This document shows positions 39,811 to 60,900 of a stretch of DNA of 64,000 bases, piece after piece. Position numbers and translations under genes: made by a program. Within the stretch, counting starts at the first letter, position 1, and every line of letters begins with the position of its first letter. Source of the stretch: an uncultured bacterium (GTDB lineage: Bacteria; Bacillota_I; Bacilli_A; RFN20; CAG-826); NCBI GenBank assembly GCA_949300345.1, contig CASGDR010000001.1, positions 131,835 to 195,834 of the forward strand, in the 5' to 3' direction. Below the pieces are notes generated by a model that did not search any database, had not been told where the DNA came from, and saw only the letters and a program-made list of their open reading frames with translations.

Positions 39811-39836
39811 AAAAAGACCGGGGATTTCACTCCCCA
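39811..39836 (-). terminator. Rho-independent terminator overlapping stop of serine recombinase
   Basis: On the minus strand, GGGGAGTGAAATCCCC is followed by GGTCTTTTTAT. Confidence 0.55.
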
Positions 39837-45532: not shown

Positions 45533-48110
45533 CCGCGTCCAAGAGATTCTTTTCCCTCGGCTAGAAGCAAGCCCCGTACTGAAACTACTTTTCTCTAAGC
45601 TTCTACAGGCCTACACAAGACTTAATTTCGGGATGGCACCGCCATCATTTGCCGAAAAGGAGATTAACCAGCTCATATCGTTCGCAAGCCTGCTCTCCAA
45701 ATCGAACGATTCCGGCCAAAAGGTCATATCCGAGCAAATCGTGGCACTGCTCGGAAAGCTCTACCCCGCCTCGGAAAGCATCAGGAAAGCCAAGGCGGAA
45801 GTGCTTTCCTCATGCACAAACTACGTCGGGATGAAGGTGGAAAAAATGGAGGGAAGGAGCGACGACGTATTCCAGGAAATCAGCTCGGAAATCCAAATGG
45901 AATCGCTGAAGATTCCGTTTCAGGACGGCAAGTTCTTCATAGACGACCAAAAGGAGATATTCGACAGCTTCGAGAAATACCAATTCGTCAGCTACTCCGC
46001 CCCCACGTCGCTTGGGAAATCGTTCGTAATGAGGATCTACCTCAAATACAAGGTTGCCAGCGGATACCGAGGAAACTTCGCGATAATCGTCCCAACAAAG
46101 GCCCTCATCAACGAGATGAGGAACAGCGTCGTCGAAGAGGACCTGAAGGACCTTCTCCGGAAGATGCACTACAGGGAGGTTTCGTCGGTCAACGAGGTAT
46201 TCGTCACCGAAGACAAGGAATCGAAGTTCATCTTCATAGTGACACCGGAGAGGCTCCACTATCTCCTCAACAGCACCGACATAGCCATCGACTGCTGCTT
46301 CGTCGACGAGTCATACAAGATATCGGAGCCCGACTCAAGGAGCCTCTACTACTATCAGGCAATAAACCAGCTCCTTGCTCGGAACCCTAAGACGAAAATA
46401 TTCTTCTCGTCCCCGAACATACCGAACCCCGAAGTCTATCTCGAAACGATAAAGGCGCCCGGGACAAGATACAGGAAGGCGACCGGGTACTCGCCCGTCA
46501 GCCAGATCAAGTACCTCATCTCGCTGAAGGAAAAAGACCGGCCAATCAAGGTGTTCAACGACCTCACCCAGGTGTTGGAGGACACGGGCATGACGAACCC
46601 GTCCACGAACATCAACGACATAATATCCACGCTGAAGACGAAGGGCGGGAACATCGTCTATTGCTCAGGGAAGGACAAGACCGTTGAGCTTGCCCTGCAA
46701 TATGCCAATTTCCTGCCCGCCTTCCAGCCCAGCACGCCTGAGGAAAGGGAAAATCAGGAAAAGCTTGACGCCCTGGCTAAGAGCATCGAGCAGGACATCC
46801 ACGAGGATTACTACCTCGCCGCTCTCATGCGAAAGGGCGTCGCCTACCACGTCGGCTACCTGCCGAATTCGCTCAGGAACAGCATAGAGAAGGCGTTCAA
46901 GACCGGGCTCATAAAGACCATCTTCTGCACGAGCACCCTAATGGAGGGGGTCAACCTCCCCGCGGACAACCTCTTCGTGACGAGCACGAGGAATGGCTCA
47001 GAGGCCATGTCTCCGACTGCGTTCAAAAACCTCCTCGGTAGGATTGGAAGGATCAATTACAGTCTTTTCGGGAACGTCTACCTCTTAGTCATCCCTCGCT
47101 ATGCCAATGCCGAAAAGTACGAGGAGCTGCTCACGTCAAAGGTCGAACCACAAAAACTGTCGCTCGATAAGATAGTCACGGACGGGTCGATCGTCGACCA
47201 CATCAGCGACGATGCATATTTCTTCGGACGCGAGGACGAGGACCAGACGAAAAGGATAGCGGCCAACATCTACATAAACGACGTTAAGAATGGCACGGAA
47301 TCACTCATCAGGGAAAGGGTCGACTCAAAAAGCGAGGAGACATTGGTTGACAAGGCTATAAGGAAAATCGAATTGCTGGAAACATCGGAAAGCATAGACA
47401 TCTCACCGGACCAGCACGTGAGCCTCAAAAAGTACATAGAAAACGGCGGCCATTACCCCGATCCCGTGAACGGCCGGTTTGAACACAGCGACGTCTGGCG
47501 CTTCCTCAACGAGCTTTCGGACATTTATAAATGGGACAAGTACGAGTTCGAGACACTTAAGAACGGCAATTCGAACTCGTATTTCGCGACCGTCCTCTCC
47601 CAGTGGATGAGCGGACTCAAAGTAAAGGAAATCGTCGACCGATCGATAGAGAGCAAGAAAAAGAACCCATATGACGCGATCTTCGACAGAAAGCTCCACA
47701 TGAAGGTCGATTACATCGGCACGGTCGAGCAAAACAACATAATCATCAACGACACGCTCAGGACGATTGAGCAAACAATCCTTTTCACCATAGCGAACTA
47801 CTTCAGAGAGTTTTCGAGGGAATACAAGAACTTCCACCACCTGGAATATTTCGACAACGACTGGTACGAGTACGTAGAGTTTGGAACCAGCAACCCAATA
47901 ACCATCGCACTTCAAAGGAACGGATACATCCGCGAAACGGCCAAATGGATACACGAAAACGATTCAAAGTACCATCTGATCGATCAAACCCGCCGATGCA
48001 AATTCGCTCCATTCACCTTAGACCTCGACAACCTTTTGAAATGCGGCGAGCAGAAAGTAATTGAAGAGACGCTCGTCATCAAACTAAATGTCCCAGAGCT
48101 TTTTAGATAG
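45525..48110 (+). CDS. SF2 (Ski2/DExH-like) helicase, candidate HamB-like
   Basis: 861 aa with motif I SAPTSLGKSF, motif II CFVDESYK (DESY in place of DExH), a motif VI-like LLGRIGRIN, and FCTSTLMEGVNLP. Confidence 0.65.
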   Translation: MANRVQEILFPRLEASPVLKLLFSKLLQAYTRLNFGMAPPSFAEKEINQLISFASLLSKSNDSGQKVISEQIVALLGKLYPASESIRKAKAEVLSSCTNYVGMKVEKMEGRSDDVFQEISSEIQMESLKIPFQDGKFFIDDQKEIFDSFEKYQFVSYSAPTSLGKSFVMRIYLKYKVASGYRGNFAIIVPTKALINEMRNSVVEEDLKDLLRKMHYREVSSVNEVFVTEDKESKFIFIVTPERLHYLLNSTDIAIDCCFVDESYKISEPDSRSLYYYQAINQLLARNPKTKIFFSSPNIPNPEVYLETIKAPGTRYRKATGYSPVSQIKYLISLKEKDRPIKVFNDLTQVLEDTGMTNPSTNINDIISTLKTKGGNIVYCSGKDKTVELALQYANFLPAFQPSTPEERENQEKLDALAKSIEQDIHEDYYLAALMRKGVAYHVGYLPNSLRNSIEKAFKTGLIKTIFCTSTLMEGVNLPADNLFVTSTRNGSEAMSPTAFKNLLGRIGRINYSLFGNVYLLVIPRYANAEKYEELLTSKVEPQKLSLDKIVTDGSIVDHISDDAYFFGREDEDQTKRIAANIYINDVKNGTESLIRERVDSKSEETLVDKAIRKIELLETSESIDISPDQHVSLKKYIENGGHYPDPVNGRFEHSDVWRFLNELSDIYKWDKYEFETLKNGNSNSYFATVLSQWMSGLKVKEIVDRSIESKKKNPYDAIFDRKLHMKVDYIGTVEQNNIIINDTLRTIEQTILFTIANYFREFSREYKNFHHLEYFDNDWYEYVEFGTSNPITIALQRNGYIRETAKWIHENDSKYHLIDQTRRCKFAPFTLDLDNLLKCGEQKVIEETLVIKLNVPELFR

Positions 48111-48119
48111 GAGGATACC

Positions 48120-50063
48120 GTGGAAACTCCCGATAAAATCATTCAATCATGCGATCCTTTGGATCTTCTTTCCAAACTTTCATATCTCAAGTGGCTAATG
48201 GCGACAGACGCTTTTTCGGATAGAGACAAGCAGCCATTCACCTTTTTGGAAGTCAAATACGCACTGCATTACGTCATGTCCTATCTGCTGTCCCATAAGC
48301 TTGGCGAAGCAGCTAATCAATCCATACAGTATGAAACAATTTCCACCTTAATCTGCGCGCTTGCCCAAGAAGAAATAAATAGAAAGTTTAACGAGGAAGC
48401 GACACTGGATAAGCTGTCAGGAAAACTTCAATACACTCAGAAAGACTCAGGCGAATTGCTTCCTTTATTCTACTCCGTTCCATTTCGCCACATTTTAGAA
48501 GGGGAAGATGACATAATCTCAGCAAAATACGGATGCAATTCGAATGACATACTCAATGATTTCGCGACATTGGTGGGCGCTTTCAATAACTCAGTAAGAG
48601 CCAAAGGAATGAAAGTTTTCGATTTCGTCAATAGGTTCAACGACTACTGCAACTCCTCCGCCTTGGCAATCCAAAAAAACATGAAAAGTTACGGCTTGTT
48701 CAAAACAATGTCAGGCCGAATAGGCCAATTCGCAGAAGACGAATTTGATCACGGTTACCCAATTTCGCTAATTAAGAAATTCAGGAAACTCTTCATCAGA
48801 GTTGACGATATTTTGTACTGCCCAGATTTGGAGCTTGTCCCAAATCTAATCGTCCGCTGCGTAGAAAGAGCGATGCAGCAAGACAAAAGGCAAAATCCAG
48901 AATGGGATCTGCGGATGAAGGAAAGAACAGAGAAACTCGTGAATGGCGCCCTTTCGCACTATTTCAAAGGAGGGACATACCATGCGAACTCAGAGTTTGG
49001 CCAGAAAGAAAAAGGGGAAAGCGATGGCCTCTTTGAATTCTTGGGACATCTTTTCATAATTGAAGTTAAAGCCGGAAAGCTTAGTCCCGATCCTGTCGAG
49101 TCAAATAACACCACTGTTCATCAATCCTACAAGGCAACGATAGGAAAAGGGACCAAGCAATGTGACAAGGCAGAAAATCATATTCTCGAACATGGCGGCA
49201 AATTCAAAGAAGACGGCCACGAATTCCGAGTGAATTACGATATTGAGCACATCATCAAACTCGTCATTTCATTTGAAGACCTTTCCGCTGTTTTGCCGGA
49301 TGAGAATATTCAAACCCCTAATCACACAATTCTCATGACTTATTTTGATTTGCTTATAGTGCTTGACTATATAAACGAACCAATTCTTTCCCTCAAATAT
49401 TTCTTGGAGAGAAGAAAGGCATTGGAGCATTGCTGGGATATTTCAGACGAAATGATTTATCTGGGTTTATTTAGCGACGACATGAATTTTACGTATCGCT
49501 TAAATTCCCAACCCTTTTCTTCTTCGGCAGACAACTCCACAAATTTCGTCCTTGATCCGCATTCGTTCACGCACGAAATAGAGATGCACTACACGCAACC
49601 AGAACGATATCCCAAACCAAAAATACATTTGAGTGAATTTCAAAGGCTGGTATTGGCGGCACTCAATGGAAAGGATAGCATCTCGTCTAAATGGGCAATG
49701 CCACTGCTTATGCTTCCTACTCAATTCGGAGATAAATTGATGTTGCTTTTCCAAAGGAATAATTGTCACAGAGGTTTTGCCCCACAAGTAGGCATGGCTG
49801 GGTTCGCAAACGGAAAACATATCGCCGTTATGGTGTCAAAAAAGCACATAGGAGAACAAAGATATATCTATTATGCCATTGCGAATAGGTTCTTCAGAAA
49901 GCATGGAGAAGCGAAAGAAATCGTAAGCCTGATTGTTGACGGCCAGCGTTCCCACCTCGAGGAAATTGACCATTCGCGAAAGGAATTAAACTATCAAAAG
50001 ACCCTAGATGCGCTTCAACAAATAGAAGCCAAATTTGGGTTTAGACAAAAGATCTACAAATAA
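48120..50063 (+). CDS. Large PD-(D/E)xK nuclease-fold protein of unknown family (AT-rich)
   Basis: 647 aa. A central motif ESDGLFEFLGHLFIIEVKAGK gives D...E-V-K. It starts 9 nt after the helicase stop. Its GC is markedly lower than that of its neighbours. Confidence 0.55.
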   Translation: METPDKIIQSCDPLDLLSKLSYLKWLMATDAFSDRDKQPFTFLEVKYALHYVMSYLLSHKLGEAANQSIQYETISTLICALAQEEINRKFNEEATLDKLSGKLQYTQKDSGELLPLFYSVPFRHILEGEDDIISAKYGCNSNDILNDFATLVGAFNNSVRAKGMKVFDFVNRFNDYCNSSALAIQKNMKSYGLFKTMSGRIGQFAEDEFDHGYPISLIKKFRKLFIRVDDILYCPDLELVPNLIVRCVERAMQQDKRQNPEWDLRMKERTEKLVNGALSHYFKGGTYHANSEFGQKEKGESDGLFEFLGHLFIIEVKAGKLSPDPVESNNTTVHQSYKATIGKGTKQCDKAENHILEHGGKFKEDGHEFRVNYDIEHIIKLVISFEDLSAVLPDENIQTPNHTILMTYFDLLIVLDYINEPILSLKYFLERRKALEHCWDISDEMIYLGLFSDDMNFTYRLNSQPFSSSADNSTNFVLDPHSFTHEIEMHYTQPERYPKPKIHLSEFQRLVLAALNGKDSISSKWAMPLLMLPTQFGDKLMLLFQRNNCHRGFAPQVGMAGFANGKHIAVMVSKKHIGEQRYIYYAIANRFFRKHGEAKEIVSLIVDGQRSHLEEIDHSRKELNYQKTLDALQQIEAKFGFRQKIYK

Positions 50064-50111: not shown

Positions 50112-52166
50112 TCAATCATTCAACTGCTTTTCAAACGACTGCTTGATGATGTCCATGACGTCGTCCAACTGGCCCAAGTTATCCAGAATAACTTCGACGT
50201 TTCCATTCCCCCACCTTCCAACGCCGGTAACGTCTTTGCATATTCCCTTTGGATCGTTCACCTCGGAGAAATCCATGTTGATGGCGATTCTCAGCCTGCT
50301 TTCCTGAAAGACGATGTCCGTGAAATTCGTGTCCAGCTTATAGGCAACGTAGAGTTTTTTGAACTCCCTTCGCACCGAGGAAGACAAGTTCATAATCCTG
50401 GTGTCAAGTTTCTCGAAAAACATCTTAGTCAGTAAATTCGGCCTGTAGGAATCGAGACTGTACTTCGGCTCGTTTCCCTTATCCTGCACGTAGGGAGCGA
50501 GTTGCTCCGATGCAAGGTTTGGATATTGCCATATTTCAAGAGCCTTGGCTGCCAAAAGTTTGGCCCTTTCCTCGATCTTGTCTCCGTTCCAAGTGCTCTG
50601 AAGAACAATGTACTCATTAAGCCTACAAGCCGTCTGGCGGAATCCGCCTTTCATGACCATTTTCTCCATGAAAGGCTTGTCGCTCATCTCTGAGTTGTAT
50701 CCGGTTAGGGTGAGATTGCCGATGGTATGTAGATATTTCGAATGGGCTGCTTTCCAATCGCTTCCTAGCATGGCCTTCCAGTCGTCGTTTAGCCGATCGT
50801 TTTGGGGCATGATATGCTCGATCGTCATCGAAAGCACGTCCACCGGGGACTTGTTGTCGTAGTTTTCAAGGCGGTCAAGGATGTAGTTCCTGTTCCGCAT
50901 GTTGTAGATATCCCTGCTAACAAATGCCTTTTCGAATTCCTCGTCGTTAGGGAACTCCTTATACCCCTCACGGGTGAGGAAGAACGCCTTCAAGGAGACA
51001 AGGTAATCGTCCTTTTTTATTTCGTTTTCCAAGGTGGCGAATGTCTTGTTGAGCGAGTTTGTGGCAAGATCGCATATGCTTCTTCTCAGCACGTAGCTTA
51101 TACATAGACGGATGATTTCGCCCGTATCGGAATTGCTTACAAGGCCGGAAGCGTTGTCACGGAGGACTGCCATTAGAAATGGGTTGGCAACGCCCATGTT
51201 TAGTTCCTTAACCTCACGGAATAACTCGGCCAAATTCTGATCCTTGCTTCTGGCAAAGATGATGTCTGTGTATATCTTTCCCATCCGGTAGATGTCATTG
51301 CAAAGCTCTTCGCTGCTTGCGAAAGGACAGTTGATCCGCCACGATTTGAACTCGTCATACACGTTCGCCTTGTTCGGGATTCTGTGGTTATACATCGTCA
51401 AGTAGTCCCTGAAGAACGAATCCATGTTGGAGTCCTGGCTTTCGTGCCCGAAGAGTTCCTCGAATGGGCGCCACACCTTGGAATAAAGGCTTTCCTGAGC
51501 TTCCTTCGTCATCCCCATGAGGACGAAGTTTCTAATCAAGTCAGACTGCGAGAGAGCCTTGCCAGTGGAATTGAGACTTTCAAAGATGGCTTGCGGATCA
51601 TCACGGCCCCTTTCGAGCGTGATGATGACTATTTGCAGCTTCCCCGTTGCCTCAAACAGAGAATCGGTAGAGATTTCGTTTTTTGCAATCTTGCTTTTAA
51701 AGAACTCGTAGGCATTGAGCAGCTTCGACTTGGTTCCTTCTGCTATGGGCTTAGATTCGACGAGGGAAACGAGGACGTCCTTGTCCTCCTCCGTCAGCAG
51801 TAGCTTGTACTTCTGCTCGCCGCTTTCATACTGGTTCATGAGAAACGATGTGTTGATCTTCTGCTTTTCGAGATCGCCGTCTATGGAATCTCGGAGCGCG
51901 ATAAGGACGAGGGCCAAGGTCGTGAGGCGCTGCTGCCCGTCGATGACCATGTATTTTTGGACACCAGTTGGAGCCGTTTTCTCCGCAATGCAGACTATTG
52001 AACCCAAGAAGTGACTGTCCCTGTTTTCCTTCTGCATTTCCACGATATCGTCCCAAAGGCGGCCGTACTGGGATTCATCCCAGCTGTATAGTCTCTGGTA
52101 AATTGGGACTATGTACTGTTTCAGCCCGTTCAGCAATTCGAATATGTTCCCCTTGTTAGCGTCCAT
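50112..52166 (-). CDS. DUF262 (ParB/GmrS-like) + DUF1524 (HNH/His-Me, GmrD-like) fusion protein; GmrSD-family defense/type IV restriction-like
   Basis: 684 aa with N-terminal IYQRLYSW...IDGQQRLTTL and C-terminal TIEHIMPQN. It overlaps the hsdR stop by 11 nt. Confidence 0.75.
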   Translation of the reverse strand: MDANKGNIFELLNGLKQYIVPIYQRLYSWDESQYGRLWDDIVEMQKENRDSHFLGSIVCIAEKTAPTGVQKYMVIDGQQRLTTLALVLIALRDSIDGDLEKQKINTSFLMNQYESGEQKYKLLLTEEDKDVLVSLVESKPIAEGTKSKLLNAYEFFKSKIAKNEISTDSLFEATGKLQIVIITLERGRDDPQAIFESLNSTGKALSQSDLIRNFVLMGMTKEAQESLYSKVWRPFEELFGHESQDSNMDSFFRDYLTMYNHRIPNKANVYDEFKSWRINCPFASSEELCNDIYRMGKIYTDIIFARSKDQNLAELFREVKELNMGVANPFLMAVLRDNASGLVSNSDTGEIIRLCISYVLRRSICDLATNSLNKTFATLENEIKKDDYLVSLKAFFLTREGYKEFPNDEEFEKAFVSRDIYNMRNRNYILDRLENYDNKSPVDVLSMTIEHIMPQNDRLNDDWKAMLGSDWKAAHSKYLHTIGNLTLTGYNSEMSDKPFMEKMVMKGGFRQTACRLNEYIVLQSTWNGDKIEERAKLLAAKALEIWQYPNLASEQLAPYVQDKGNEPKYSLDSYRPNLLTKMFFEKLDTRIMNLSSSVRREFKKLYVAYKLDTNFTDIVFQESRLRIAINMDFSEVNDPKGICKDVTGVGRWGNGNVEVILDNLGQLDDVMDIIKQSFEKQLND

Positions 52167-55100
52167 CGCTTTCCCCTCCCATTACGTTGTCCGTCCAAAG
52201 TTCGCACTGCTCGAGAACGGTCTGGATGGCCTTCTCGCGCTCCTCTCCTTCGGGCGGATACTTGTATTTCTTCAAGAGCCTTTTCACTAACATTTTCATG
52301 TGCGAGCGGGCACCCTCGCGCTTCTGCCAGTCTATCGTCTCGTTCTTCCTGAGGAGCTCGGTCAGTTCCTTGGTCATCGCCACCAGTTCGTCGTTCGTGT
52401 AGAAGTCCATGACCGCGGCTGGCTGCGTAAGCGCGTCGTAGAAAGCCTTCTCTTCGGTAGTAAGCCCAAGTTCCTTGCCCTGCTCCGTCGCTTTGCGAAT
52501 CTGCTCGGCCAAATCGAGAAGCTCGTGCATGACCTCCTCGTTCGTCAACATCCCGTTCAGGTACTTGGTGACGATTCTCTGGATGATCTCGCTGAATTTA
52601 ACGGACTGGACCAGGTTGGTCTTCCTGAATATCCTAATCTGCTCGCTGATGAGCTTCTTCAAAAGCTCGACCGCGATGTTCTTCTCCTTCATCTTCGATA
52701 TCTCAGCTAGGAAGTCGGGATTGAATAGCGAAAAGCTCACTTCCCTGTCCTCGAAGAGGTTGATTACACCTTCGGAGATCACGCTTTGTTTGAGCAGCTC
52801 GCTGACCTTGTCGTTGACCTCTGACAGGCTGTATTTCTTGGGCCCGCCGGCGCTTTCGAGCCTGTTGAGGAGGACCCTCACGGATTCGAAGAAAGAGGCT
52901 TCGTGCCTTTCCTCTGCGGTCGCGAGGGACGAGCAAAGAGAAAGAGCTTGGTGGCAAAGGAGGCCCTGTTTGAGGAAATCCTTCTTGGTCTCGGCAAGCT
53001 CCGGCGCGACCATGAAGTTGACGGCCCCTGTGATCGTCTGGGCCTTTACGAGGTCGTCTCCGCTGTTGAAGGCCGCCCAGTCGAATCCGTGGAACAGGTC
53101 CTTGCATACCTGGAGCTTCTCCTGGAACTTCGGATAGGCTTCCTTTGAGACGTCCATGTCGCCGAAGTTCTTCTGGTCGCGGACCGTGTATTCCCTCATG
53201 GCTTGCTTTAGGGCGTTCGCTATCCCGATGTAGTCGACGACTAGGCCGCCCTCCTTGTCCTCGAAAACGCGGTTCACCCTCGCGATTGCCTGCATGAGGT
53301 TGTGGCCGACCATCGGCTTGTAGACGTACATGGTCGCAAGGGACGGTATGTCGAAGCCGGTCAGCCACATGTCGACGACGATGGCAATCTTGAGCGGCGA
53401 CGAGTTGTCCTTGAACCTCGTCGCGAGTTCCTGTTTGCGCGCCTTGTTGCCGATGATGTCCCTCCACCATTCAGGGTCTCGGTTGTCGCTCGTCATCACC
53501 ACCGCCACCTTCTCGGTCCAAGTCGGCCTCTGCCGGAGGATTTCCTTGTAGATCTCCATTGCAATCGGCCTTGAATAGGCGACGATCATCGCCTTGCCAG
53601 TAAGCAGGTGCTCGCGGTTGTTCTCGTAGTGGCCGATGATGTCGGTCACCAACGAGTTTATGGTCTTCGGGTTCCCCAAGACTGCCTCAAGCTGGCCGAG
53701 CTTCCGCTTGCTGGCTTCGATGACGGAAGGATCGGAATCCTCCTCCAGCTTATCGTAGAGGTCGTCAATCTTGCCTATGGTCTCCTCGTCGAGCTTCAGC
53801 TTGATGACGCGGCTTTCGTAATAGACCGGCCTTGTGGCCCCGTCGGCCACGGACTGTGTCATGTCGTAGATGTCGATGTAGTCGCCGAATATCTCCTTGG
53901 TGTTGTGGTCCTTGCTGAACACCGGGGTCCCGGTGAAACCGATGTAGGTGGCGTTCGGGAGGGCGTCCCTGACCTTCCTGGCGTAGCCTATGGTCGTTAC
54001 GGCGACATCGTTGCCGTTCTCATCTTTCTTTATTCGCACTTTTTCCGTGAGGCCGTATTGGCTTCGGTGCGCCTCGTCGGACATGACGACGATGTTCTTC
54101 CTCGTCGAAAGGGGCTTGGCTGACTCGGTGAACTTCTCGATCGTGGTGAAGAAGATGCCGTTGGCCTTCCTTTCGTCGAGTAGCTTGACGAGGTGCTCGC
54201 GCGACTCGGCCTGGATGGGCTTTTGCCTCAGGAACTCGGAGCACTTGGCGAACTGCGAGAAAAGCTGATCGTCAAGGTCGTTTCTGTCGGTAAGGACAAC
54301 GATCGTAGGACTATCTAGGTGCTGCTGGAGTAGATGTGCGTAAAAGACCATCGAAAGGGACTTGCCGCTCCCCTGAGTGTGCCAGAAGACGCCGCCCTTC
54401 CCGTCGGTAGCCACCGCCCTTTCCGTCGACTTGATGGCCTTGTTGACGGCGAAGTACTGGTGGTAGGCCGCCATGATCTTGAACGTCTTTATCCCCTCGT
54501 TGGAGAAGCAGATGAAGTTCCGGATGATGTCGAGGAGGCGCTCCTTCGGGAATATCCCCTCGAAGAAAACGTCGAAGGTGGCGACGCAATCGGTGGTGTA
54601 CGTACCATCCTTGCTCTTCCATTCCATGAACCTCTCCTCGTCGGAGGTGATGGTCCCGGCCTTCGAAAGAAGGAGGTCCGACATGACGCATAAGGCATTG
54701 TAGATGAACATCGACGGGATTTCGTGGATGTAGTTCCTTATCTGAGAGTATGCCTCCGAAGCATTCGTCTCCTCCCTAGAAGGCGACTTCAGTTCCATGA
54801 GCACCACCGGGAGGCCGTTTAGGAAGATAAGGATGTCCGGGCGCTTGTTGCTCCTTTCCACAAAGGTCCACTGGTTCGCCACGACGAACGAATTCCTCTC
54901 CGGGTGATCATAGTCGACCAAGTAGCACATGTCGGACTTGGACTCCCCGTTCTCACGGTAACGGACCGGAAGGCCGTTCTGCAGATAGTCCATGAATAGC
55001 TTGTTTTTTTGGATGAGGTCGGCGTTTTCAAAGTGATGGAGCTTGTTCAAGGCGTCTTGGATGGCCTCTTCTTTGAGCGACGGATTTATCCTCCGCAGGG

Positions 55101-55236
55101 ATTCCTCCAATTCTCCCTCGTAAAGAGGCGATTCGTAGTCCCTATCCGGAAGGTCGGGGCCATAAACATGCCTGTAGCCGAGGCCTTCGAGAAGCTGGAC
55201 TATAGAATTCTCGTATGTATTTTCAGTGAATGGCAT
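52156..55236 (-). CDS. hsdR: Type I restriction enzyme R subunit
   Basis: 1026 aa with an N-terminal HsdR_N region, SF2 motifs GSGKSLSM and SDEAHRSQ, and a C-terminal helical domain. Confidence 0.9.
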   Translation of the reverse strand: MPFTENTYENSIVQLLEGLGYRHVYGPDLPDRDYESPLYEGELEESLRRINPSLKEEAIQDALNKLHHFENADLIQKNKLFMDYLQNGLPVRYRENGESKSDMCYLVDYDHPERNSFVVANQWTFVERSNKRPDILIFLNGLPVVLMELKSPSREETNASEAYSQIRNYIHEIPSMFIYNALCVMSDLLLSKAGTITSDEERFMEWKSKDGTYTTDCVATFDVFFEGIFPKERLLDIIRNFICFSNEGIKTFKIMAAYHQYFAVNKAIKSTERAVATDGKGGVFWHTQGSGKSLSMVFYAHLLQQHLDSPTIVVLTDRNDLDDQLFSQFAKCSEFLRQKPIQAESREHLVKLLDERKANGIFFTTIEKFTESAKPLSTRKNIVVMSDEAHRSQYGLTEKVRIKKDENGNDVAVTTIGYARKVRDALPNATYIGFTGTPVFSKDHNTKEIFGDYIDIYDMTQSVADGATRPVYYESRVIKLKLDEETIGKIDDLYDKLEEDSDPSVIEASKRKLGQLEAVLGNPKTINSLVTDIIGHYENNREHLLTGKAMIVAYSRPIAMEIYKEILRQRPTWTEKVAVVMTSDNRDPEWWRDIIGNKARKQELATRFKDNSSPLKIAIVVDMWLTGFDIPSLATMYVYKPMVGHNLMQAIARVNRVFEDKEGGLVVDYIGIANALKQAMREYTVRDQKNFGDMDVSKEAYPKFQEKLQVCKDLFHGFDWAAFNSGDDLVKAQTITGAVNFMVAPELAETKKDFLKQGLLCHQALSLCSSLATAEERHEASFFESVRVLLNRLESAGGPKKYSLSEVNDKVSELLKQSVISEGVINLFEDREVSFSLFNPDFLAEISKMKEKNIAVELLKKLISEQIRIFRKTNLVQSVKFSEIIQRIVTKYLNGMLTNEEVMHELLDLAEQIRKATEQGKELGLTTEEKAFYDALTQPAAVMDFYTNDELVAMTKELTELLRKNETIDWQKREGARSHMKMLVKRLLKKYKYPPEGEEREKAIQTVLEQCELWTDNVMGGESDGR

Positions 55237-55253
55237 AGCAGCCCTCCTTTCAT

Positions 55254-55281
55254 CCGTTTAAACGATAATTTATCGAAGCAG
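55254..55281 (+). repeat. hsdS recombination repeat R1 (forward; encodes NDNLSKQ)
   Basis: ccgtttaaacgataatttatcgaagcag. It is a 22 bp perfect inverted match to 55971..55992 and a 22 bp direct match to 57546..57567. Confidence 0.8.
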
Positions 55282-55344
55282 ATATCTACACTTATCGCTC
55301 ATGAATTCCCATATACAGCCGATGAATTCATAAGTGGTTGGCAT

Positions 55345-55968
55345 ATGGTTAACCTTACTGAAGTAGCTAGTTTTACGAATGGCTATTCATATAAGAGTGA
55401 TGATCTCAAGCCGAATGATGACATTGCCTTGGTCACCATTAAAAACTTTGATAGATATGGTGGATTCAAATTGGATGGCTTCAAAGAACTAATACCGTCT
55501 AGTCGAGTGAAGCCTGAGCAGTATGCTGATTTGTTCGATATTCTCGTAGCACACACAGATTTAACGCAAAACGCCGAAGTCATTGGTAATTCAGAAGTTG
55601 TGCTTTCAAAAGGGAGATATGGCAAACTGGTATTCTCGATGGACTTAGTTTGTGTAAGGCCAATAGGGAATTTTGGCAAATTCCTTCTAGCGGCTCTTTT
55701 GCACGACAGGCGCTTCAAAAAGCACTGTTTGGGGTATGTCAATGGGACTACAGTTTTACACCTAAATAAAAACGCTCTAAAAGAATATTGTTTTCTTGTT
55801 CCGGATGACCCTTCAATACTATGCAAGTTAGATTTGCTTCTCGGTGACTTATATCGAAAACAGTCAGAAATCATCGAAGAAAACATTCGCCTCTCAGAAA
55901 CAAGAGATCTTCTGTTAAAAAAGTTGTTGTCTGGTGAGACAGAATCGCTAGATTTTTTAGAAAGGTAA
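55345..55968 (+). CDS. hsdS: Silent partial hsdS cassette (single target-recognition domain plus conserved C-terminus)
   Basis: 207 aa from MVNLTEV, ending LLLKKLLSGETESLDFLER. It is in frame with the upstream repeat R1 and flanked by inverted repeats R1 and R2. Confidence 0.7.
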   Translation: MVNLTEVASFTNGYSYKSDDLKPNDDIALVTIKNFDRYGGFKLDGFKELIPSSRVKPEQYADLFDILVAHTDLTQNAEVIGNSEVVLSKGRYGKLVFSMDLVCVRPIGNFGKFLLAALLHDRRFKKHCLGYVNGTTVLHLNKNALKEYCFLVPDDPSILCKLDLLLGDLYRKQSEIIEENIRLSETRDLLLKKLLSGETESLDFLER

Positions 55969-55992
55969 GACGATAAATTATCGTTTAAACGG
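55969..55992 (-). repeat. hsdS recombination repeat R2 (inverted copy)
   Basis: gacgataaattatcgtttaaacgg is the reverse complement of R1. Confidence 0.8.
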
Positions 55993-56066
55993 ACGTAGCT
56001 CCCCCGCGGCGGGAGGCCGAGAGAAACAGCCGCGGAAAGCGCTTCTCCAGTAATAAGGAGGAGAAC

Positions 56067-57053
56067 ATGAAAGAAGAATTCGTCAACCTCGTCGTTCAGG
56101 ACATGCTTCCGTTCCTGAACAACGCTCAGCTCGAGAAGCTCAAGGAATCCCTTGAGAGAGAACTGATTGGGAAGCAAATCGTCGAAGAAAGAAAGGAGGA
56201 CAAGATGGACTGGAACGAAGGATACGTCCAGAAGTTCATTTCATCGAAAAGGCTTGAAGGGTGCTCCGAGAAATCGCTCCTTTACTACGAAAAGACGATT
56301 AACAGGGTCTTAGGCGAAATAGGAAAGCCCCTTAAGACTATCGTTACTGATGACCTTAGATCATATCTAACCGCTTATCAGGCAAAAAACGAGGTGAGCA
56401 AGGTCACAATCGACAACGTCAGGAGGATTCTTTCTAGCTTCTTCTCATGGCTGGAAGACGAAGACTACATCCTGAAAAGCCCTGCCAGGAGGATCCATAA
56501 GGTCAAGGCGACGATCAGCATCAAAAACACATTCACGGACGAAGAGATAGAGATGATGCGTGACGCCTGCGAATCCCCTCGCGACCTTGCGATAATCGAC
56601 ATGCTTTCTTCGACCGGCATGAGGGTGGGGGAGATGATCAAGCTCAAGCGCTCCGACGTTAACCTAGTCGAGAGGGAATGCGTGGTTCTCGGCAAGGGCG
56701 ATAAACAAAGAACCGTGTACTTCGACGCACGAACGAAGATTCATCTTCAAAGATATCTGGAGACTCGTACCGATTCTCTGGATTCCCTGTTTTTATCTAG
56801 ATGCAGGTCCGGCCAGCCGCTGGGCATAGGCGGAATAGAGCATCTTATAAAGAAATTAGGAACGCTTATCGGTATCAAAAAGGCACATCCACATAAGTTC
56901 AGAAGAACGTTAGCAACTGGTGCTATAGATAAGGGGATGCCAATTGAGCAAGTTCAACAGTTACTAGGACATAAGCGCATTGACACCACATTGATGTATG
57001 CAATGGTTAAACAAGCAAACGTCAAAGCTTCTCACAGACGATACATAGGTTAG
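56067..57053 (+). CDS. Tyrosine site-specific recombinase (XerC/D-like, shufflon invertase)
   Basis: 328 aa with the R (MRVGE), K (GKGDKQR), H-x-x-R (HPHKFRRT) and Y (TTLMYA) catalytic signature. It lies between the hsdS cassettes. Confidence 0.85.
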   Translation: MKEEFVNLVVQDMLPFLNNAQLEKLKESLERELIGKQIVEERKEDKMDWNEGYVQKFISSKRLEGCSEKSLLYYEKTINRVLGEIGKPLKTIVTDDLRSYLTAYQAKNEVSKVTIDNVRRILSSFFSWLEDEDYILKSPARRIHKVKATISIKNTFTDEEIEMMRDACESPRDLAIIDMLSSTGMRVGEMIKLKRSDVNLVERECVVLGKGDKQRTVYFDARTKIHLQRYLETRTDSLDSLFLSRCRSGQPLGIGGIEHLIKKLGTLIGIKKAHPHKFRRTLATGAIDKGMPIEQVQQLLGHKRIDTTLMYAMVKQANVKASHRRYIG

Positions 57054-57066
57054 GGAGGAAAAAGAC

Positions 57067-58131
57067 ATGAAAAAAACCAGACTTGGTGACATTGCCATAA
57101 TAACGATGGGCCAATCGCCTGAATCCTGTTTTTACAATACTGAAGGGCGAGGAATGCCTTTCTTACAGGGCAGCAAAACATTTGGAAGAATATTTCCGAC
57201 ATTTTCCTCTTTTACTGAGAGAACTACTAAAACCGCATTGAAAGGGGACGTTTTAATGAGCGTTCGGGCACCTGTCGGCGACATTAACATCGCTCCAACT
57301 GATATGTGCATCGGCCGTGGTCTTTGTTCTATCAGAATGAAAAACGGCAACCAAAAATACCTTTTCTATCTTTTGAAGAATAACATTCACAATATTCTCA
57401 GCAAACAAAATGGAACAGTGTTTGCTTCCGTAAACAGAAAAGATTTAGAGAGCCTAGAACTGTATGTTTTGAACGAAGAGGAGCAGAAATCTTTCGGGGA
57501 TTTCTTGGCACTCTTCGATGAAAAAATTAATTTGAATGATGAGATAAACGATAATTTATCGAAGCAGGCAGAAGCTATTTTTGAAGCCGCCTTTGCCGAT
57601 TCGATGTATGGTGACAAGAAGATTTCCGACTTTATTTTGCCTAAGCGAGGCAAGTCCCTTCTATCAAAGGATGCAACTGCCGGAGATGTTCCAGTTGTAG
57701 CTGGCGGACTTGAGCCGGCAACATTTCACAATGCAGCTAATACGGTAGCTCCGGTCATAACGATTTCAGCTTCTGGGGCAAATGCCGGTTTTGTGAGGCT
57801 TTGGAACGTTCCGGTTTGGTCTTCTGACTCATCTTTCATTGATAAGACGATGACGGACATAGTCTATTTCTGGTATTTGGCGTTGAAGACCAGGCAAGAT
57901 GAGATTTATGGGGCCCAAACTGGTTCGGCCCAGCCACATGTTTATCCTCAGAATGTCAGTTCGTTACCAATCGGCGAATTAGATCAAGTGAAGGCGAAAG
58001 AGGTTAATAGCCTACTCACGCCTCTATTTGAAAAGATAGGAGAAAACGAACTAGAGAACCAAAAACTTGCAAGCCTAAGAGATTCATTGCTTCCGCGATT
58101 GCTCAGCGGAGAGATAAATCCGGCGGAATAA
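57067..58131 (+). CDS. hsdS: hsdS gene copy with two target-recognition domains, inverted relative to hsdM (silent donor or alternately expressed)
   Basis: 354 aa. TRD-A is followed by the central conserved NDEINDNLSKQAEAIFEAAF (repeat R3), then TRD-B and a C-terminus LLPRLLSGEINPAE. Confidence 0.75.
   Translation: MKKTRLGDIAIITMGQSPESCFYNTEGRGMPFLQGSKTFGRIFPTFSSFTERTTKTALKGDVLMSVRAPVGDINIAPTDMCIGRGLCSIRMKNGNQKYLFYLLKNNIHNILSKQNGTVFASVNRKDLESLELYVLNEEEQKSFGDFLALFDEKINLNDEINDNLSKQAEAIFEAAFADSMYGDKKISDFILPKRGKSLLSKDATAGDVPVVAGGLEPATFHNAANTVAPVITISASGANAGFVRLWNVPVWSSDSSFIDKTMTDIVYFWYLALKTRQDEIYGAQTGSAQPHVYPQNVSSLPIGELDQVKAKEVNSLLTPLFEKIGENELENQKLASLRDSLLPRLLSGEINPAE
57544..57567 (+). repeat. 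hsdS recombination repeat R3 (forward)
   Basis: ataaacgataatttatcgaagcag is identical to the core of R1 and inverted relative to R4. Confidence 0.8.
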
Positions 58132-58664
58132 AAGGTTCGCTTCGATAAATTATCGTTTATCTTGTTGTTTTGAGTAATTTTGTCATCAAGGTCGCTCAGG
58201 AGCCGAGAAACAGCTTTCTGCTCATCCAAACTTGGAAGATCAATTGAAATTTCGCCAAAAATATGGGAAGTGATCGTGTCAAATACAGATCCATTGGCCG
58301 CCTTTTTCAGTATACGGACAGCATTCTTCAAAAAATAGAAAAGGTAATCTGGGTCAACAAGGGTCGCATGTGGATGGATTCCAAAGCACGATTGGTTAAA
58401 AGCCATCGTCTTTTTTATCATGGCTATTTCTCCAACCGTTCCCCTTGCTGATATTACGATGTCATTTTCACTCAAGAGTTTAGTTGAACTATTTTTAAGT
58501 CCCTCTTCTGTAATACTTTTTTCCGTCTTCTCAACATATTTCGATCCCTCACGGATATCTTTGACTGAAATCCAAGGAATATCTCCATTCCAATAACACG
58601 GAACTGTTGTTTTGGGAGTGCCACCACCAATAATGTCGGAAATTTCGGAGATTTTATAAGTCAT
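57984..58664 (-). CDS. hsdS: Expressed-locus hsdS (TRD1) downstream of hsdM; reading frame leaves HsdS-like sequence after repeat R4
   Basis: MTYKISEISDIIGGGTP... is an N-terminal TRD, then KINDNLSK at repeat R4. After that the frame reads antisense of the plus-strand hsdS C-terminus, non-HsdS-like, until the stop at 57984. It overlaps the hsdM stop by 11 nt. Confidence 0.65.
   Translation of the reverse strand: MTYKISEISDIIGGGTPKTTVPCYWNGDIPWISVKDIREGSKYVEKTEKSITEEGLKNSSTKLLSENDIVISARGTVGEIAMIKKTMAFNQSCFGIHPHATLVDPDYLFYFLKNAVRILKKAANGSVFDTITSHIFGEISIDLPSLDEQKAVSRLLSDLDDKITQNNKINDNLSKRTFYSAGFISPLSNRGSNESLRLASFWFSSSFSPIFSNRGVSRLLTSFAFT
58141..58160 (-). repeat. hsdS recombination repeat R4 (inverted copy)
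   Basis: ttcgataaattatcgtttat is the reverse complement of 57544..57563. Confidence 0.8.
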
Positions 58665-60168
58665 AGCCGAGCCCCTTTAGATTTTTCCGAATTTCTGTTT
58701 CAAGCTCGTGTGATTTTTCGAACAGTTCGGATAATTCACTTGTAAGTCGGCTCATTTTTTCTTCGAACGGTTCGCCGTCATCCTCTTGCTCCTCAATTCC
58801 GACGTATCGGCCAGGGGTAAGCACAAATCCATGCTCCCCAATCGTCGCTATATCCGCCACGGCACAATAGCCTTTCTCATCGCTTAGAGTTCCGTTTTGG
58901 AATTGCTCAAAAGTATCAGCAAGCTTCTTGATGTCGTCATCCGAGAAGTCGCGATGAGTCCGGTCCACCATGTGACCCATCTTCCTAGCATCAATGAACA
59001 AGGTCCTACCCTTCCGCTTCTTGTTTTTGGTTATGAACCAAAGCGAAACCGGGATAGTAACGCTGTAGAAAAGCTGAGTCGGCATTGCAATGATCCCCTC
59101 GATGAGATCGGCTTGGATGATCTTTTTGCGTATCTCTCCTTCACCGCTGGAATTCGATGTTAGGGCACCGTTTGCAAGGACAAGGCCGATTTTACCGTTT
59201 GGCGCAAGATGATAAATCATGTGCTGTATCCAGGCAAAGTTGGCATTCCCGGCAGGTGGAAGTCCATAAGCCCAACGCACGTCGTCAACAAGGTTCTCTT
59301 GCCCCCACGGGTGGTAATTGAACGGTGGGTTTGCCAAAACAAAATCAGCCCGCAATGTCTTATGAAGGTCGTGAGCGAACGTATCATCCGGATTAGGGCC
59401 GAAATCGGCATCGATTCCACGGATTGCCATGTTCATCTTGGCCATCTTCCAAGTGTCGGGATTGGCTTCCTGCCCGTAAACGGAAATTGTTCCTCTCCTT
59501 CCGGTATGCTCTTGGATAAAGTTGGCCGATTGCACGAACATGCCGCCGCTTCCGCAACATGGGTCATAGACCCGACAGTTCGAAAAGGGCTTAAGAATGG
59601 AAACTAGTGTTTTGACGATGCTTGAAGGCGTGTAATATTCGCCACCCTTCTTGCCCTCTTTCGCAGCGAACTTCGCAATGCAGTACTCATAAGTCCTGCC
59701 CAAAAGATCTTTTTCTTCATTGTCGCTCATGTTCACGTTGGTGAAAATGTCGACGACGTTTCCAAGGACAGACTGGTCCAAATCCGGATTGGCGTAATTC
59801 TTCGGAAGGACGTTTTTCAAACTTGGATTTTCTTTCTCAATGGCCTCCATGGCCGTATCAATAACTTTTCCAATCTCGGGCTTATGGGCGTTTGCGGAAA
59901 TGGTTTCCCACCTGGATTCCTTCGGCAAGTAGAAAACATTCACCTCTTTGTAAGCATCTTTATCGTCTTCAAAACCATCGCCTTCAGCGACAAGTTCCTG
60001 ATAGCGATGTTCGAAGGCCGTGGAGACATAGCGAAGGAAGATTAGCCCAATCACTACTTGCCGATACTCGGTTGTAGGAATGTGCCCCCAAAGAACGCAG
60101 GCAGCATCCCAGATTTCCTTCTCAAAACCAATAGTAGCGTTTGATTTGTTTTTGTCAGCCATTATCAC
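58654..60168 (-). CDS. hsdM: Type I R-M N6-adenine DNA methyltransferase subunit
   Basis: 504 aa with an HsdM N-domain, a SAM motif and the catalytic NPPF (VLANPPFNYHPWGQE). Confidence 0.9.
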   Translation of the reverse strand: MIMADKNKSNATIGFEKEIWDAACVLWGHIPTTEYRQVVIGLIFLRYVSTAFEHRYQELVAEGDGFEDDKDAYKEVNVFYLPKESRWETISANAHKPEIGKVIDTAMEAIEKENPSLKNVLPKNYANPDLDQSVLGNVVDIFTNVNMSDNEEKDLLGRTYEYCIAKFAAKEGKKGGEYYTPSSIVKTLVSILKPFSNCRVYDPCCGSGGMFVQSANFIQEHTGRRGTISVYGQEANPDTWKMAKMNMAIRGIDADFGPNPDDTFAHDLHKTLRADFVLANPPFNYHPWGQENLVDDVRWAYGLPPAGNANFAWIQHMIYHLAPNGKIGLVLANGALTSNSSGEGEIRKKIIQADLIEGIIAMPTQLFYSVTIPVSLWFITKNKKRKGRTLFIDARKMGHMVDRTHRDFSDDDIKKLADTFEQFQNGTLSDEKGYCAVADIATIGEHGFVLTPGRYVGIEEQEDDGEPFEEKMSRLTSELSELFEKSHELETEIRKNLKGLGYDL

Positions 60169-60371
60169 TTCTCCTCTGTTATGGGTGCGATATCCTTATC
60201 CTTCATCAACTGTTCTAACTTGGCCTTAGCGATTTTTGTGGGCTCAAAATGCCCATTTTCCCACCGATTGACTGTTTGGAAGGTTACATCCAAAAGGTCA
60301 GCTAATCCTTGTTGAGAAAGTCCTAGTTCAGTGCGTATTTTTACTATCGTTTTTTTATAATCGACCCTCAT
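60165..60371 (-). CDS. XRE-family (Cro/cI-type) HTH transcriptional regulator
   Basis: 68 aa with the HTH LGLSQQGLADLLDVTFQTVNRWENG. The stop overlaps the hsdM start by 4 nt. Confidence 0.7.
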   Translation of the reverse strand: MRVDYKKTIVKIRTELGLSQQGLADLLDVTFQTVNRWENGHFEPTKIAKAKLEQLMKDKDIAPITEEK

Positions 60372-60507
60372 TTTTGCCTCCGCCTTATAACAGTCTATAT
60401 CATTTTATAACACTTTATATGTTCATGCCTAGGAAAACATCATCTTTCCCTCAATAAAAAAAGAGCCACCCAACCCCGTCAGGAGTCAGATGGCTTCGCG
60501 TCATTGA

Positions 60508-60900
60508 TTATGCTTTTTGGCTGGCGGTCTTGAGCGTGTTTATGCTCGCCTCGATCTGCGTGGTGACCCAGGCGTCGACGTCCCCGAAGTGCGTCTCGAT
60601 GTAGTCCCTGACGTCATCGCCAAGCTGGGCGAGGACGATGCCCTTGGCCTTGTTGAGCGCAGTGAGTTGGGCGTCCTTGCCGAAGTTCCCCTCCTTCTTC
60701 AAGGAATCGACATAGGTCTGGAACACGCACCTCACGGCATCCAAGACAATCGTTGTTGCATCCGTGATGTACTTCTCGGTCTTTTCATTGTCTATCTTGG
60801 CAGAGATCCACTTGATGAGTTTGCCTCCAAGCAAGGTGATGAGCGGAATGATTACGGCTGTCACAATGCAGCTCAAAACATTCAATAAGATTTCGTTCAT
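60508..60900 (-). CDS. Phage holin (LL-H-like family)
   Basis: 130 aa with an N-terminal TM helix, then KWISAKIDNEK...QTYVDSLKKEGNF..., reminiscent of LL-H holins. Confidence 0.55.
   Translation of the reverse strand: MNEILLNVLSCIVTAVIIPLITLLGGKLIKWISAKIDNEKTEKYITDATTIVLDAVRCVFQTYVDSLKKEGNFGKDAQLTALNKAKGIVLAQLGDDVRDYIETHFGDVDAWVTTQIEASINTLKTASQKA

Follow-up and report, generated by a model that had tools for sequence, protein, structure and literature searches.

Organization of the locus

The window analysed here is a stretch of 64,000 nt from an uncultured bacterium (contig CASGDR010000001.1 of assembly GCA_949300345.1), and we describe a type I restriction-modification (R-M) system that belongs to a prophage and stands among its defence genes, with the lysis genes on one side and the phage serine integrases on the other. 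The system is complete, as hsdR, hsdM and hsdS were all confirmed by matches in Pfam, NCBIfam and PADLOC. The parts of hsdS, i.e. two 5′ halves that each encode a target recognition domain (TRD1 and TRD1′) and two cassettes for the second domain (TRD2 cassettes A and B), are found in one locus between hsdM-TRD1 and hsdR. Interspersed among them are a gene for a tyrosine recombinase and four short repeats, sites R1 to R4. The features are, in window coordinates:

52156-55236, minus strand: hsdR, restriction/translocase subunit, 1026 aa (Pfam HSDR_N, SWI2_SNF2 and T1RH-like_C; NCBIfam hsdR, 1e-181)
55253-55281, plus strand: site R1, core 55259-55275, 17 nt upstream of the hsdR start codon; left flank L1
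55282-55968, plus strand: TRD2 cassette A, behind the non-coding flank L1 (C-terminal half of PADLOC Specificity_I, E 1.5e-18)
55971-55993, minus strand: site R2, core 55971-55987, with no TRD upstream of it
55993-56072, plus strand: structured leader of the recombinase mRNA (covariation in an alignment of 74 leaders), with left flank L2 at its 5′ end
56067-57053, plus strand: tyrosine recombinase, XerA/XerC/XerD-like, 328 aa (Pfam Phage_integrase, 4e-31; SAM-like N-terminal domain)
57067-58131, plus strand: hsdS′, two TRDs, 354 aa (TRD1′, R3, cassette B)
57067-57544, plus strand: TRD1′, the 5′ half of hsdS′ (Pfam Methylase_S, 7e-23, residues 2-164); left flank L3
57545-57567, plus strand: site R3, core 57545-57561
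57568-58131, plus strand: TRD2 cassette B, fused to TRD1′ in the window (PADLOC Specificity_I, hsdS′ residues 183-351)
57984-58664, minus strand: hsdS, truncated, 226 aa (TRD1, then R4, then 51 residues antisense to cassette B)
58139-58159, minus strand: site R4, core 58143-58159
58160-58664, minus strand: TRD1, the fixed 5′ half of the hsdM-linked hsdS (Pfam Methylase_S, 1.6e-29, residues 2-173); left flank L4
58654-60168, minus strand: hsdM, type I N6-methyladenine (m6A) methyltransferase subunit (Pfam N6_Mtase, 1e-105, and HsdM_N; PADLOC MTase_I, 9e-199); gene callers start it at an ATG two codons downstream, which gives 502 aa
60165-60371, minus strand: small helix-turn-helix (HTH) gene of the XRE type, 68 aa (Pfam HTH_3, E 3e-10)

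The hsdS gene linked to hsdM is broken off. Its TRD1 half also holds the first part of the central helix and ends ...KINDNLSK; right after ...INDNLSK the HsdS-like sequence stops and the frame continues on the strand opposite to the 3′ end of hsdS′. This loss behind the NDNLSK-coding repeat R4 had been pointed out in the first-pass annotation, which was made from the letters and reading frames alone, and it is plainly seen in the translations. The same annotation had placed a two-TRD hsdS copy, a single-TRD cassette and a Xer-like recombinase on the opposite strand, and the domain matches agree. The hsdS′ gene has its own ATG and a GGAGG ribosome-binding site, with the start codon located 14 nt after the recombinase stop. 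Cassette B ends with the conserved C-terminal helix ...LRDSLLPRLLSGEINPAE, and cassette A, which is currently silent, with ...TRDLLLKKLLSGETESLDFLER. As the Pfam Methylase_S score of cassette A (21.3 bits) is slightly below the gathering cut-off, its identity was settled by the PADLOC profiles. The recombinase passes the NCBIfam model NF040815 with 236 bits (cut-off 220), and an alignment to the XerA structures 4a8e and 5hxy indicates that the catalytic residues R, K, H-x-x-R, H and Y are conserved.

The end of the HTH gene and the beginning of hsdM have 4 nt in common. Just upstream of the HTH gene, a promoter-like site (60431-60402) is preceded by a terminator-like hairpin (60495-60464), which follows the holin gene. 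The HTH gene is probably the first of an HTH-hsdM-hsdS operon. Its product may also serve as a controller protein of the R-M operon.

One recombination site in four copies

All four sites share a 17-nt core, TAAACGATAATTTATCG, which encodes ...(I)NDNLS(K) in site orientation. The slightly different core of the first-pass annotation, AAACGATAATTTATCG, has exact copies at 55260(+), 55971(-), 57546(+) and 58143(-), and the proposed orientations, R1 and R3 forward and R2 and R4 inverted, are correct for every copy. Only 0.05 matches would be expected by chance, and five or more matches occurred in none of 100 shuffled sequences. A fifth match with two mismatches at 55968(+) is the internal palindrome of R2, CGATAA-T-TTATCG. 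Beyond the common core, the pairwise repeats extend to 23 nt (R1/R2 and R1/R3), 24 nt (R3/R4) and 21 nt (R1/R4), and the stretch shared by R1 and R2 takes in the non-coding left flank TCCGTT. The locus contains a single family of 17-24-nt repeats in the orientation order +,-,+,-, in which only the TRD2 cassettes are flanked by sites. The three intervals named earlier as invertible (55282-55970, 55993-57543 and 57568-58140) proved to be correct.

Each site joins one left flank (L1 to L4) to one cassette end, that is, to the head or tail of A or B. The left flanks L1, next to hsdR, and L2, next to the recombinase leader, are non-coding; L3 is TRD1′ and L4 is TRD1. In this nomenclature the window has the junctions L1-A head, L2-A tail, L3-B head and L4-B tail. 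When inversions between oppositely oriented sites were simulated, 16 arrangements resulted. The hsdM-linked product was TRD1-B (363 aa) or TRD1-A (404 aa), both in frame, or it was truncated; likewise, the recombinase-linked product was TRD1′-B (354 aa) or TRD1′-A (395 aa), again both in frame, or truncated. Exactly one complete hsdS is present in 12 of the 16 states.

These results support the view of the locus as a phase-variable hsdS shufflon with four short repeats and a locus-encoded tyrosine recombinase. More specifically, we propose a phase-variable type I R-M system of the kind known as SsuCC20p from Streptococcus suis and S. agalactiae (PMC10790761), carried by a prophage, whose hsdS is rebuilt by its own tyrosine recombinase. 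We put the probability of this reading at roughly 85%. According to the proposed mechanism, the XerA/XerD-like recombinase would recombine any two of the four identical sites in the codons of the HsdS central helix. Exchange between inverted sites would invert one of three segments (cassette A, cassette B or the recombinase/TRD1′ block) or the three as a unit. Exchange within a direct pair (R1 × R3 or R2 × R4) would excise a circle of ~2.3 kb or ~2.2 kb, respectively, that carries the recombinase gene, and re-entry of the circle at another site would let the cassettes trade places without inverting the recombinase. Working with HsdM (and HsdR), every complete HsdS would then have a bipartite m6A target of its own, so that the methylation of the genome is predicted to change with the arrangement.

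Alternative junctions in public assemblies

In total, 10 of the 16 possible junction types were seen. Besides the four of the window, six more (L2-A head, L3-A tail, L2-B tail, L3-B tail, L4-B head and L1-B head) are present in metagenome contigs that are 100% identical to the window. Since every observed junction keeps the 17-nt core intact, the crossover falls within this core. The junctions come from the accessions ERZ16268184/ERR10610575, ERZ16268167/ERR10610568 and ERZ17292902. The paired accessions have matching junction sets and probably represent two samples, which leaves about three independent samples plus the source of the window itself.

An exact look-up of the recombinase gave four contigs of 1.6-2.4 kb that end at or just past R2 and R3. 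Two of them (L001 and L004) carry the junctions L2-A head and L3-A tail, and the other two (L002 and L003) L2-B tail and L3-B tail. In L002 and L003 the B tail stands at both ends as a terminal inverted repeat. As this would be impossible for a single molecule, both orientations of the recombinase block, and hence at least two isomers, must be present in the sample.

The hsdM-linked side was reached through a homology search with the truncated HsdS. It returned a database protein of 363 aa (P0002) that equals the predicted TRD1-B residue for residue and matches the Specificity_I profile end to end. It is encoded on a 34.8-kb contig of a different assembly (L005, ERZ17292902), where it is preceded by the phage, HTH and hsdM genes known from the window; the next site marks the end of the contig. 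Thus, the earlier suggestion that recombinase-mediated inversions place TRD2 cassettes behind TRD1 gains from both sides: the products are in frame in the simulation, and TRD1-B occurs verbatim in a public assembly. On the hsdR side, three hsdR-bearing contigs (L007, L008 and L009) have the junction L1-B head. Exact scans of IMG/VR and the JGI metagenomes gave no match to the TRD1-side junction. At the level of metagenome assemblies, several arrangements co-exist in the population, because incompatible junctions are found inside single samples.

A related strain is represented by contig L006 (logan:SRR18576650_104106), in which TRD1 has two amino-acid changes and is 96% identical in nucleotides. 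Its hsdS is also truncated (220 aa) and enters a different convergent cassette; the cassette repertoire therefore varies between strains.

Related loci and the state of the window

More than 500 relatives of the recombinase with ~60-65% identity were found among GTDB species representatives, the best match being 65% identical. They belong to the Bacillota, with members in Lachnospiraceae, Oscillospiraceae, Peptoniphilus, Streptococcus, Megasphaera and other groups; one from a streptococcus (L062) shares 60% identity. In the phage collection, one uncultured-phage record has a close relative, three more are partial or 51-59% identical, and three isolated phages match at only ~30% identity, with the gene annotated as integrase.

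We examined the locus layout for the best 80 of these relatives. In about 60 of the 80 loci there are four sites in the order +,-,recombinase,+,-, at distances from the recombinase start of ~800 and ~100 nt on the upstream side and ~1,520 and ~2,150 nt on the downstream side. Within a locus the family core, TAAAYRAKAATTTA, is the same at every site, but it varies between loci, as judged from about 60 loci. The colinear order hsdM-TRD1-site-cassette-site-recombinase-TRD1′-site-cassette-site-hsdR is found in 41 of the 61 loci that keep hsdM and/or hsdR. Contigs of less than 3 kb account for 15 of the 80 loci, and in 11 of these a site lies no more than 130 nt from an end; the same breakage of contigs at sites was noted by Huang et al.

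Two further contigs, which represent a close relative (L092 and L093; logan:ERR10610685_11559 and ena:ERZ17292900:k87_840944), carry the block of cassette A, recombinase and TRD1′ in the colinear orientation and with 95.8% identity. Its neighbours, hsdM/TRD1 on one side (83.5% identical) and hsdR on the other (89% identical), differ more from those of the window, which suggests modular exchange of this block between type I loci. The two contigs show no phage context, and the downstream GmrSD gene is in fragments.

Compared with the colinear order usual in the relatives, the whole central module is inverted in the window, an arrangement shared only with L015 and L018 among the loci examined. 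The simulation places the colinear form one R1 × R4 inversion away. In this isomer, TRD1 is truncated and TRD1′-B is the only complete specificity gene. The first-pass annotation had taken this for an OFF or half-HsdS state. This holds for the truncated gene linked to hsdM, but is doubtful for the locus as a whole, since a complete hsdS′ (TRD1′-B, 354 aa) with ATG and ribosome-binding site stands behind the recombinase. For SsuCC20p, the hsdS behind xerD was found to be transcribed and to direct methylation of the genome (PMC10790761). By analogy, the window may be in an ON state with TRD1′-B specificity instead of OFF.

Probable excision as a second route

The junctions assembled in ERZ16268184 (L4-B tail, L1-B head, L2-A head and L3-A tail) are those of a chromosome that has lost cassette A, the recombinase and TRD1′, together with those of a circle holding them. 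One contig from this sample (L001, ena:ERZ16268184:scaffold_38809) is 2,385 nt long, and its first and last 99 nt are identical, which corresponds to a circle of 2,286 nt. This length equals the R1-R3 spacing (55259-57544 in the window), and the contig is identical to the circle predicted to form by inversion of cassette A followed by R1 × R3 excision. A second scaffold from the same sample (L007, scaffold_4694) agrees with the predicted deletion product at all but 1 of 8,332 nt. When a tyrosine recombinase acts on identical sites in direct orientation, excision is expected, and such sites are present here. Excision from the locus is therefore probable.

One may go further and suppose that excision and reintegration of the ~2.3-kb circle, as in the tvr locus of S. 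pneumoniae, is the main route and that simple inversions are minor. The four junctions of ERZ16268184 form exactly the set of one excised state, the exact circle and the matching deletion product occur together, and the Logan contigs of ERR10610575 agree. Moreover, circular intermediates that carry the recombinase gene have been proven for tvr (PMC6265443). In SsuCC20p, TRDs were seen to switch place without inversion of xerD, which was left unexplained by the authors (PMC10790761); exit via one direct pair (sites 1 and 3) and re-entry via the other (2 and 4) would account for this cassette swap and offers a concrete mechanism for it. Yet the window, L015 and L018 carry an inverted recombinase block, and L002 and L003 reveal both block orientations, which reintegration at co-oriented sites cannot produce. 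In addition, L001 could be a cycle in the assembly graph, and a non-replicating circle should be rare. On balance, we think it unlikely that excision is the main route and favour a locus-encoded recombinase that inverts and probably also excises.

A comparable observation was made for a cultured strain, Bariatricus massiliensis AT12, whose assembly contains the recombinase block twice with 100% identity (L018, NZ_LT574837.1, and L019, NZ_LT574829.1). The chromosomal copy, L018, has the window-like inverted orientation and only three sites; L019 is a 2,369-bp contig with a site at both ends, and it carries the cassette missing from the chromosomal copy. It is the same assembly sign of heterogeneity.

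Objections and other explanations

Several points weigh against a currently switching SsuCC20p-type system. The junctions derive from only about three independent samples, and the paired ENA and Logan assemblies probably share two sequencing runs. The evidence consists of assembled metagenome contigs instead of reads or clonal material, so that chimeras can arise at the repeats, and fixed variants living side by side are formally still conceivable as the source of the junctions. Likewise, the circular contig and the deletion scaffold could be paths that the assembler took through a mixture of inversion isomers. The TRD1-A fusion (404 aa) was not among the close database relatives. Finally, a scan of 55000-60600 gave no convincing promoter for the inverted recombinase-hsdS′ unit, the number of promoter and terminator sites being no higher than in shuffled sequence. 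As this unit is no longer downstream of the hsdM promoter in the inverted orientation, expression of hsdS′ in the window isomer is uncertain.

The locus could also be a frozen relic, in which the repeats are leftovers of past rearrangements or conserved coding sequence and the junctions are fixed strain differences or chimeras. In favour of this, the variants are known from assemblies only, and the truncation of the hsdM-linked hsdS would fit a decayed system. We consider this very unlikely. R1 and R2 have no upstream TRD and are nevertheless perfect copies, and in about 60 loci the four cores agree with one another within the locus but vary from locus to locus. The recombinase reading frame is intact and keeps its catalytic residues, no TRD is disrupted, and each fusion preserves the frame. 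Also, the flanks of the variant junctions are all 100% identical to the window, and incompatible junctions occur within single samples.

Alternatively, the repeats might recombine by RecA-dependent homologous recombination, for which the neighbouring recombinase would not be required. A precedent is found in ivr, where repeats of 85 and 333 bp recombine without the locus recombinase (cited in PMC10790761). The repeats in the window are 17-24 nt long, which is too short for efficient RecA recombination, and the crossovers are confined to the 17-nt core; the 14-15-bp repeats in SsuCC20p and ivr do need the recombinase (PMC10790761). We regard this route as highly improbable and assume that switching would depend on the locus-encoded enzyme.

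Hardly credible is the notion that the tyrosine recombinase is a prophage integrase or a Xer dimer resolvase with att- or dif-like repeats unrelated to hsdS: PHROG integrase-family matches, the prophage location and the XerA-like score would be in line with it, but two large serine recombinases stand at the prophage end by the host genes, relatives lie between hsdS halves with four sites in most of the best 80 loci, mostly without nearby phage genes, and the sites are in frame in the hsdS central helix and yield complete HsdS proteins. On the evidence given, the integrase/Xer, RecA-driven and frozen-relic explanations were rejected.

A conserved leader upstream of the recombinase gene

Only a 73-nt leader separates R2 from the ATG of the recombinase. 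In the related loci, a conserved element stands ~85 nt upstream of each recombinase start, and an alignment of 74 loci gave the consensus TAACTCCCAnCAGCGGCGGGAGTTA...GGAACTGCCGCTG...GTCGTTCTCT...AAGGAGAA...ATG. We propose three helices for it: P1, ACTCCC with GGGAGT; P2, a pseudoknot between CAACGG in the P1 loop and a downstream CCGTTG; and P3, in which TTCTCT masks the Shine-Dalgarno (SD) sequence GGAGAA. The corresponding elements of the window are CTCCC/GGGAG (P1), CCGCGG in the loop with a downstream CCGCGG (P2), and the anti-SD:SD pairing TTCTCC/GGAGAA (P3).

The alignment columns covary in agreement with this structure. Of the alignment cells, 92% are paired, compared with 45-61% when the partners are slid against each other; both-side changes are seen in 16 of 19 pairs (175 cells), and none of 500 shuffles reaches any of these measures, although the pair counts lean somewhat towards the proposed structure because it was drawn by eye from the same alignment. 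In P2, the pairs alternate between CG and GC (45/24) and between GC and AU (36/33). A covariance model built without the window and L092 finds 55993-56072(+) with 31.8 bits (E 4e-6) as the sole significant hit in the 64 kb. A single-sequence fold of the window leader was no better than shuffled sequences (z = -1.0), so that the structure is visible only through the 74-sequence alignment. Searches of Rfam 15 returned nothing relevant (the locus at E ≤ 1, ten related loci at the gathering threshold and one leader at E ≤ 10), and a text search found no description of the leader.

In tvr, an RNA structure upstream of tvrR limits expression of the recombinase (PMC6265443). By analogy, the leader probably throttles translation of the recombinase and would thereby keep switching low; possibly it is an undescribed cis-regulatory RNA that sets the switching rate. 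With its covarying pseudoknot and anti-SD helix, and its occurrence in a widespread recombinase family of gut Bacillota, it is a candidate regulator of switching frequency.

Tentatively, and at odds below even, we extend the reading to the whole group: SsuCC20p-type shufflons would not be pure invertons, the 2.2-2.3-kb unit of cassette, recombinase and TRD1′ would be a self-excising and self-reinserting mini-element, and the leader would represent an undescribed class of cis-regulatory RNA that sets its switching rate. If this is true, the mini-element could move between type I loci that share an INxNL-coding site; the 95.8% identical block of L092, with its different neighbours, is in line with this.

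Prophage context

To the right of the R-M locus lie the holin gene (60508-60900), an XhlA-like gene and tail-fibre genes, and L005 shows a tape-measure gene upstream. No DNA similarity to the adjacent phage genes was found in the phage collection. To the left follow a GmrSD-type enzyme, a 647-aa protein, the Hachiman genes and serine recombinases, and then host housekeeping genes:

50112-52166: GmrSD/type IV-like enzyme, whose start overlaps the hsdR stop by 11 nt
48120-50063: open reading frame of 647 aa, 10 nt after HamB, with no match in Pfam, NCBIfam, PADLOC or PHROGs
45525-48110: Hachiman HamB, in the defence island adjoining the R-M genes
44072-45532: Hachiman HamA, in the same defence island
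39827-42692, minus strand: two tandem, overlapping large serine recombinases of 536 and 436 aa

The serine recombinases are located at a low-GC edge (0.39 at 39-40 kb), between the host genes and the defence island. They probably are the integrase pair of the prophage and mark its end.

Comparison with known systems

Phase-variable type I R-M systems are well known, and hundreds of loci have been surveyed (PMC7672463, PMC7394358; also PMC4190663). By the definition of inverting type I systems ('epigenetic invertons') in PMC7672463, the locus belongs with them in its complete type I gene set, its more than two hsdS genes or fragments, inverted repeats in excess of chance, a recombinase with intact catalytic residues, in-frame full-length inversion products and, at the level of metagenome assemblies, co-existing arrangements; a distinct methylation motif for each hsdS allele is predicted. 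By switching type I specificity, a clonal population, here a lysogen or its prophage, can vary both the target of its phage defence and its genome-wide m6A pattern. A near-complete junction catalogue drawn from public assemblies supports the view that the locus is active in nature, and it includes two states not seen in S. suis, the inverted recombinase block and an apparent excised circle.

The first-pass annotation had assigned the architecture to the types of pneumococcal ivr/SpnD39III and Mycoplasma pulmonis, and this assignment had to be revised. The ivr locus resembles the window in being a type I R-M system with spare hsdS sequences, an in-locus tyrosine recombinase and inversions at hsdS repeats. 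It differs in that its repeat pairs are of three kinds (15, 85 and 333 bp), TRD1 is exchanged as well as TRD2 and the spares are silent, whereas the locus in the window uses a single core in four copies, shuffles TRD2 cassettes alone and has a second hsdS that begins with a start codon of its own behind the recombinase. The hsd1 and hsd2 loci of M. pulmonis likewise produce chimeric specificity subunits by site-specific hsdS inversions; but their recombinase, HvsR, is the product of a gene outside these loci and inverts vsa genes as well (PMC7672463), and gene order and sites differ.

Similar in layout is tvr/SpnIV of S. pneumoniae (PMC6265443), with the order hsdM...recombinase...hsdR, TRD segments on both sides, a midpoint repeat of ~18 bp and an RNA structure in front of the recombinase gene that limits its expression. 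At the window locus there are also hints of tvr-like excision. On the other hand, the tvr repeats are all direct and of two types, in contrast to the one core in both orientations; a phd-doc toxin-antitoxin pair (tvrAT) precedes tvrR and has no counterpart in the window; and the tvr attenuator is a terminator-like hairpin, whereas the window leader combines a pseudoknot with an anti-SD helix.

Compared by published description, SsuCC20p (PMC10790761) is the closest described case. Both systems are prophage-borne and have hsdM, hsdR, four TRDs and one xerD-like recombinase inside the locus. In both, one core occurs four times in the codons of the central helix, a second hsdS follows directly behind the recombinase, and usually one complete hsdS exists at a time. 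The four identical 14-bp repeats of SsuCC20p were described as 'two identical sets of IRs' (inverted repeats), and switching was abolished in a xerD deletion mutant (PMC10790761). Its core, TAAATGATGATTTA, is identical to that of the window, TAAACGATAATTTA, at 12 of 14 positions, and the family consensus covers both. The colinear order of SsuCC20p matches most relatives of the window locus; relative to it, the window has the same elements and the same site order. The differences lie in the TRDs and the host (presumably a Clostridia-like Bacillota genome, judging from the relatives), in the inversion of the central module against hsdM and hsdR, a state that was reported as never seen in S. suis, and in what the metagenomes add, namely an apparent excised circle and a recombinase block that occurs in either orientation. 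The window adds a documented member to the SsuCC20p type, not a new mechanism or principle.

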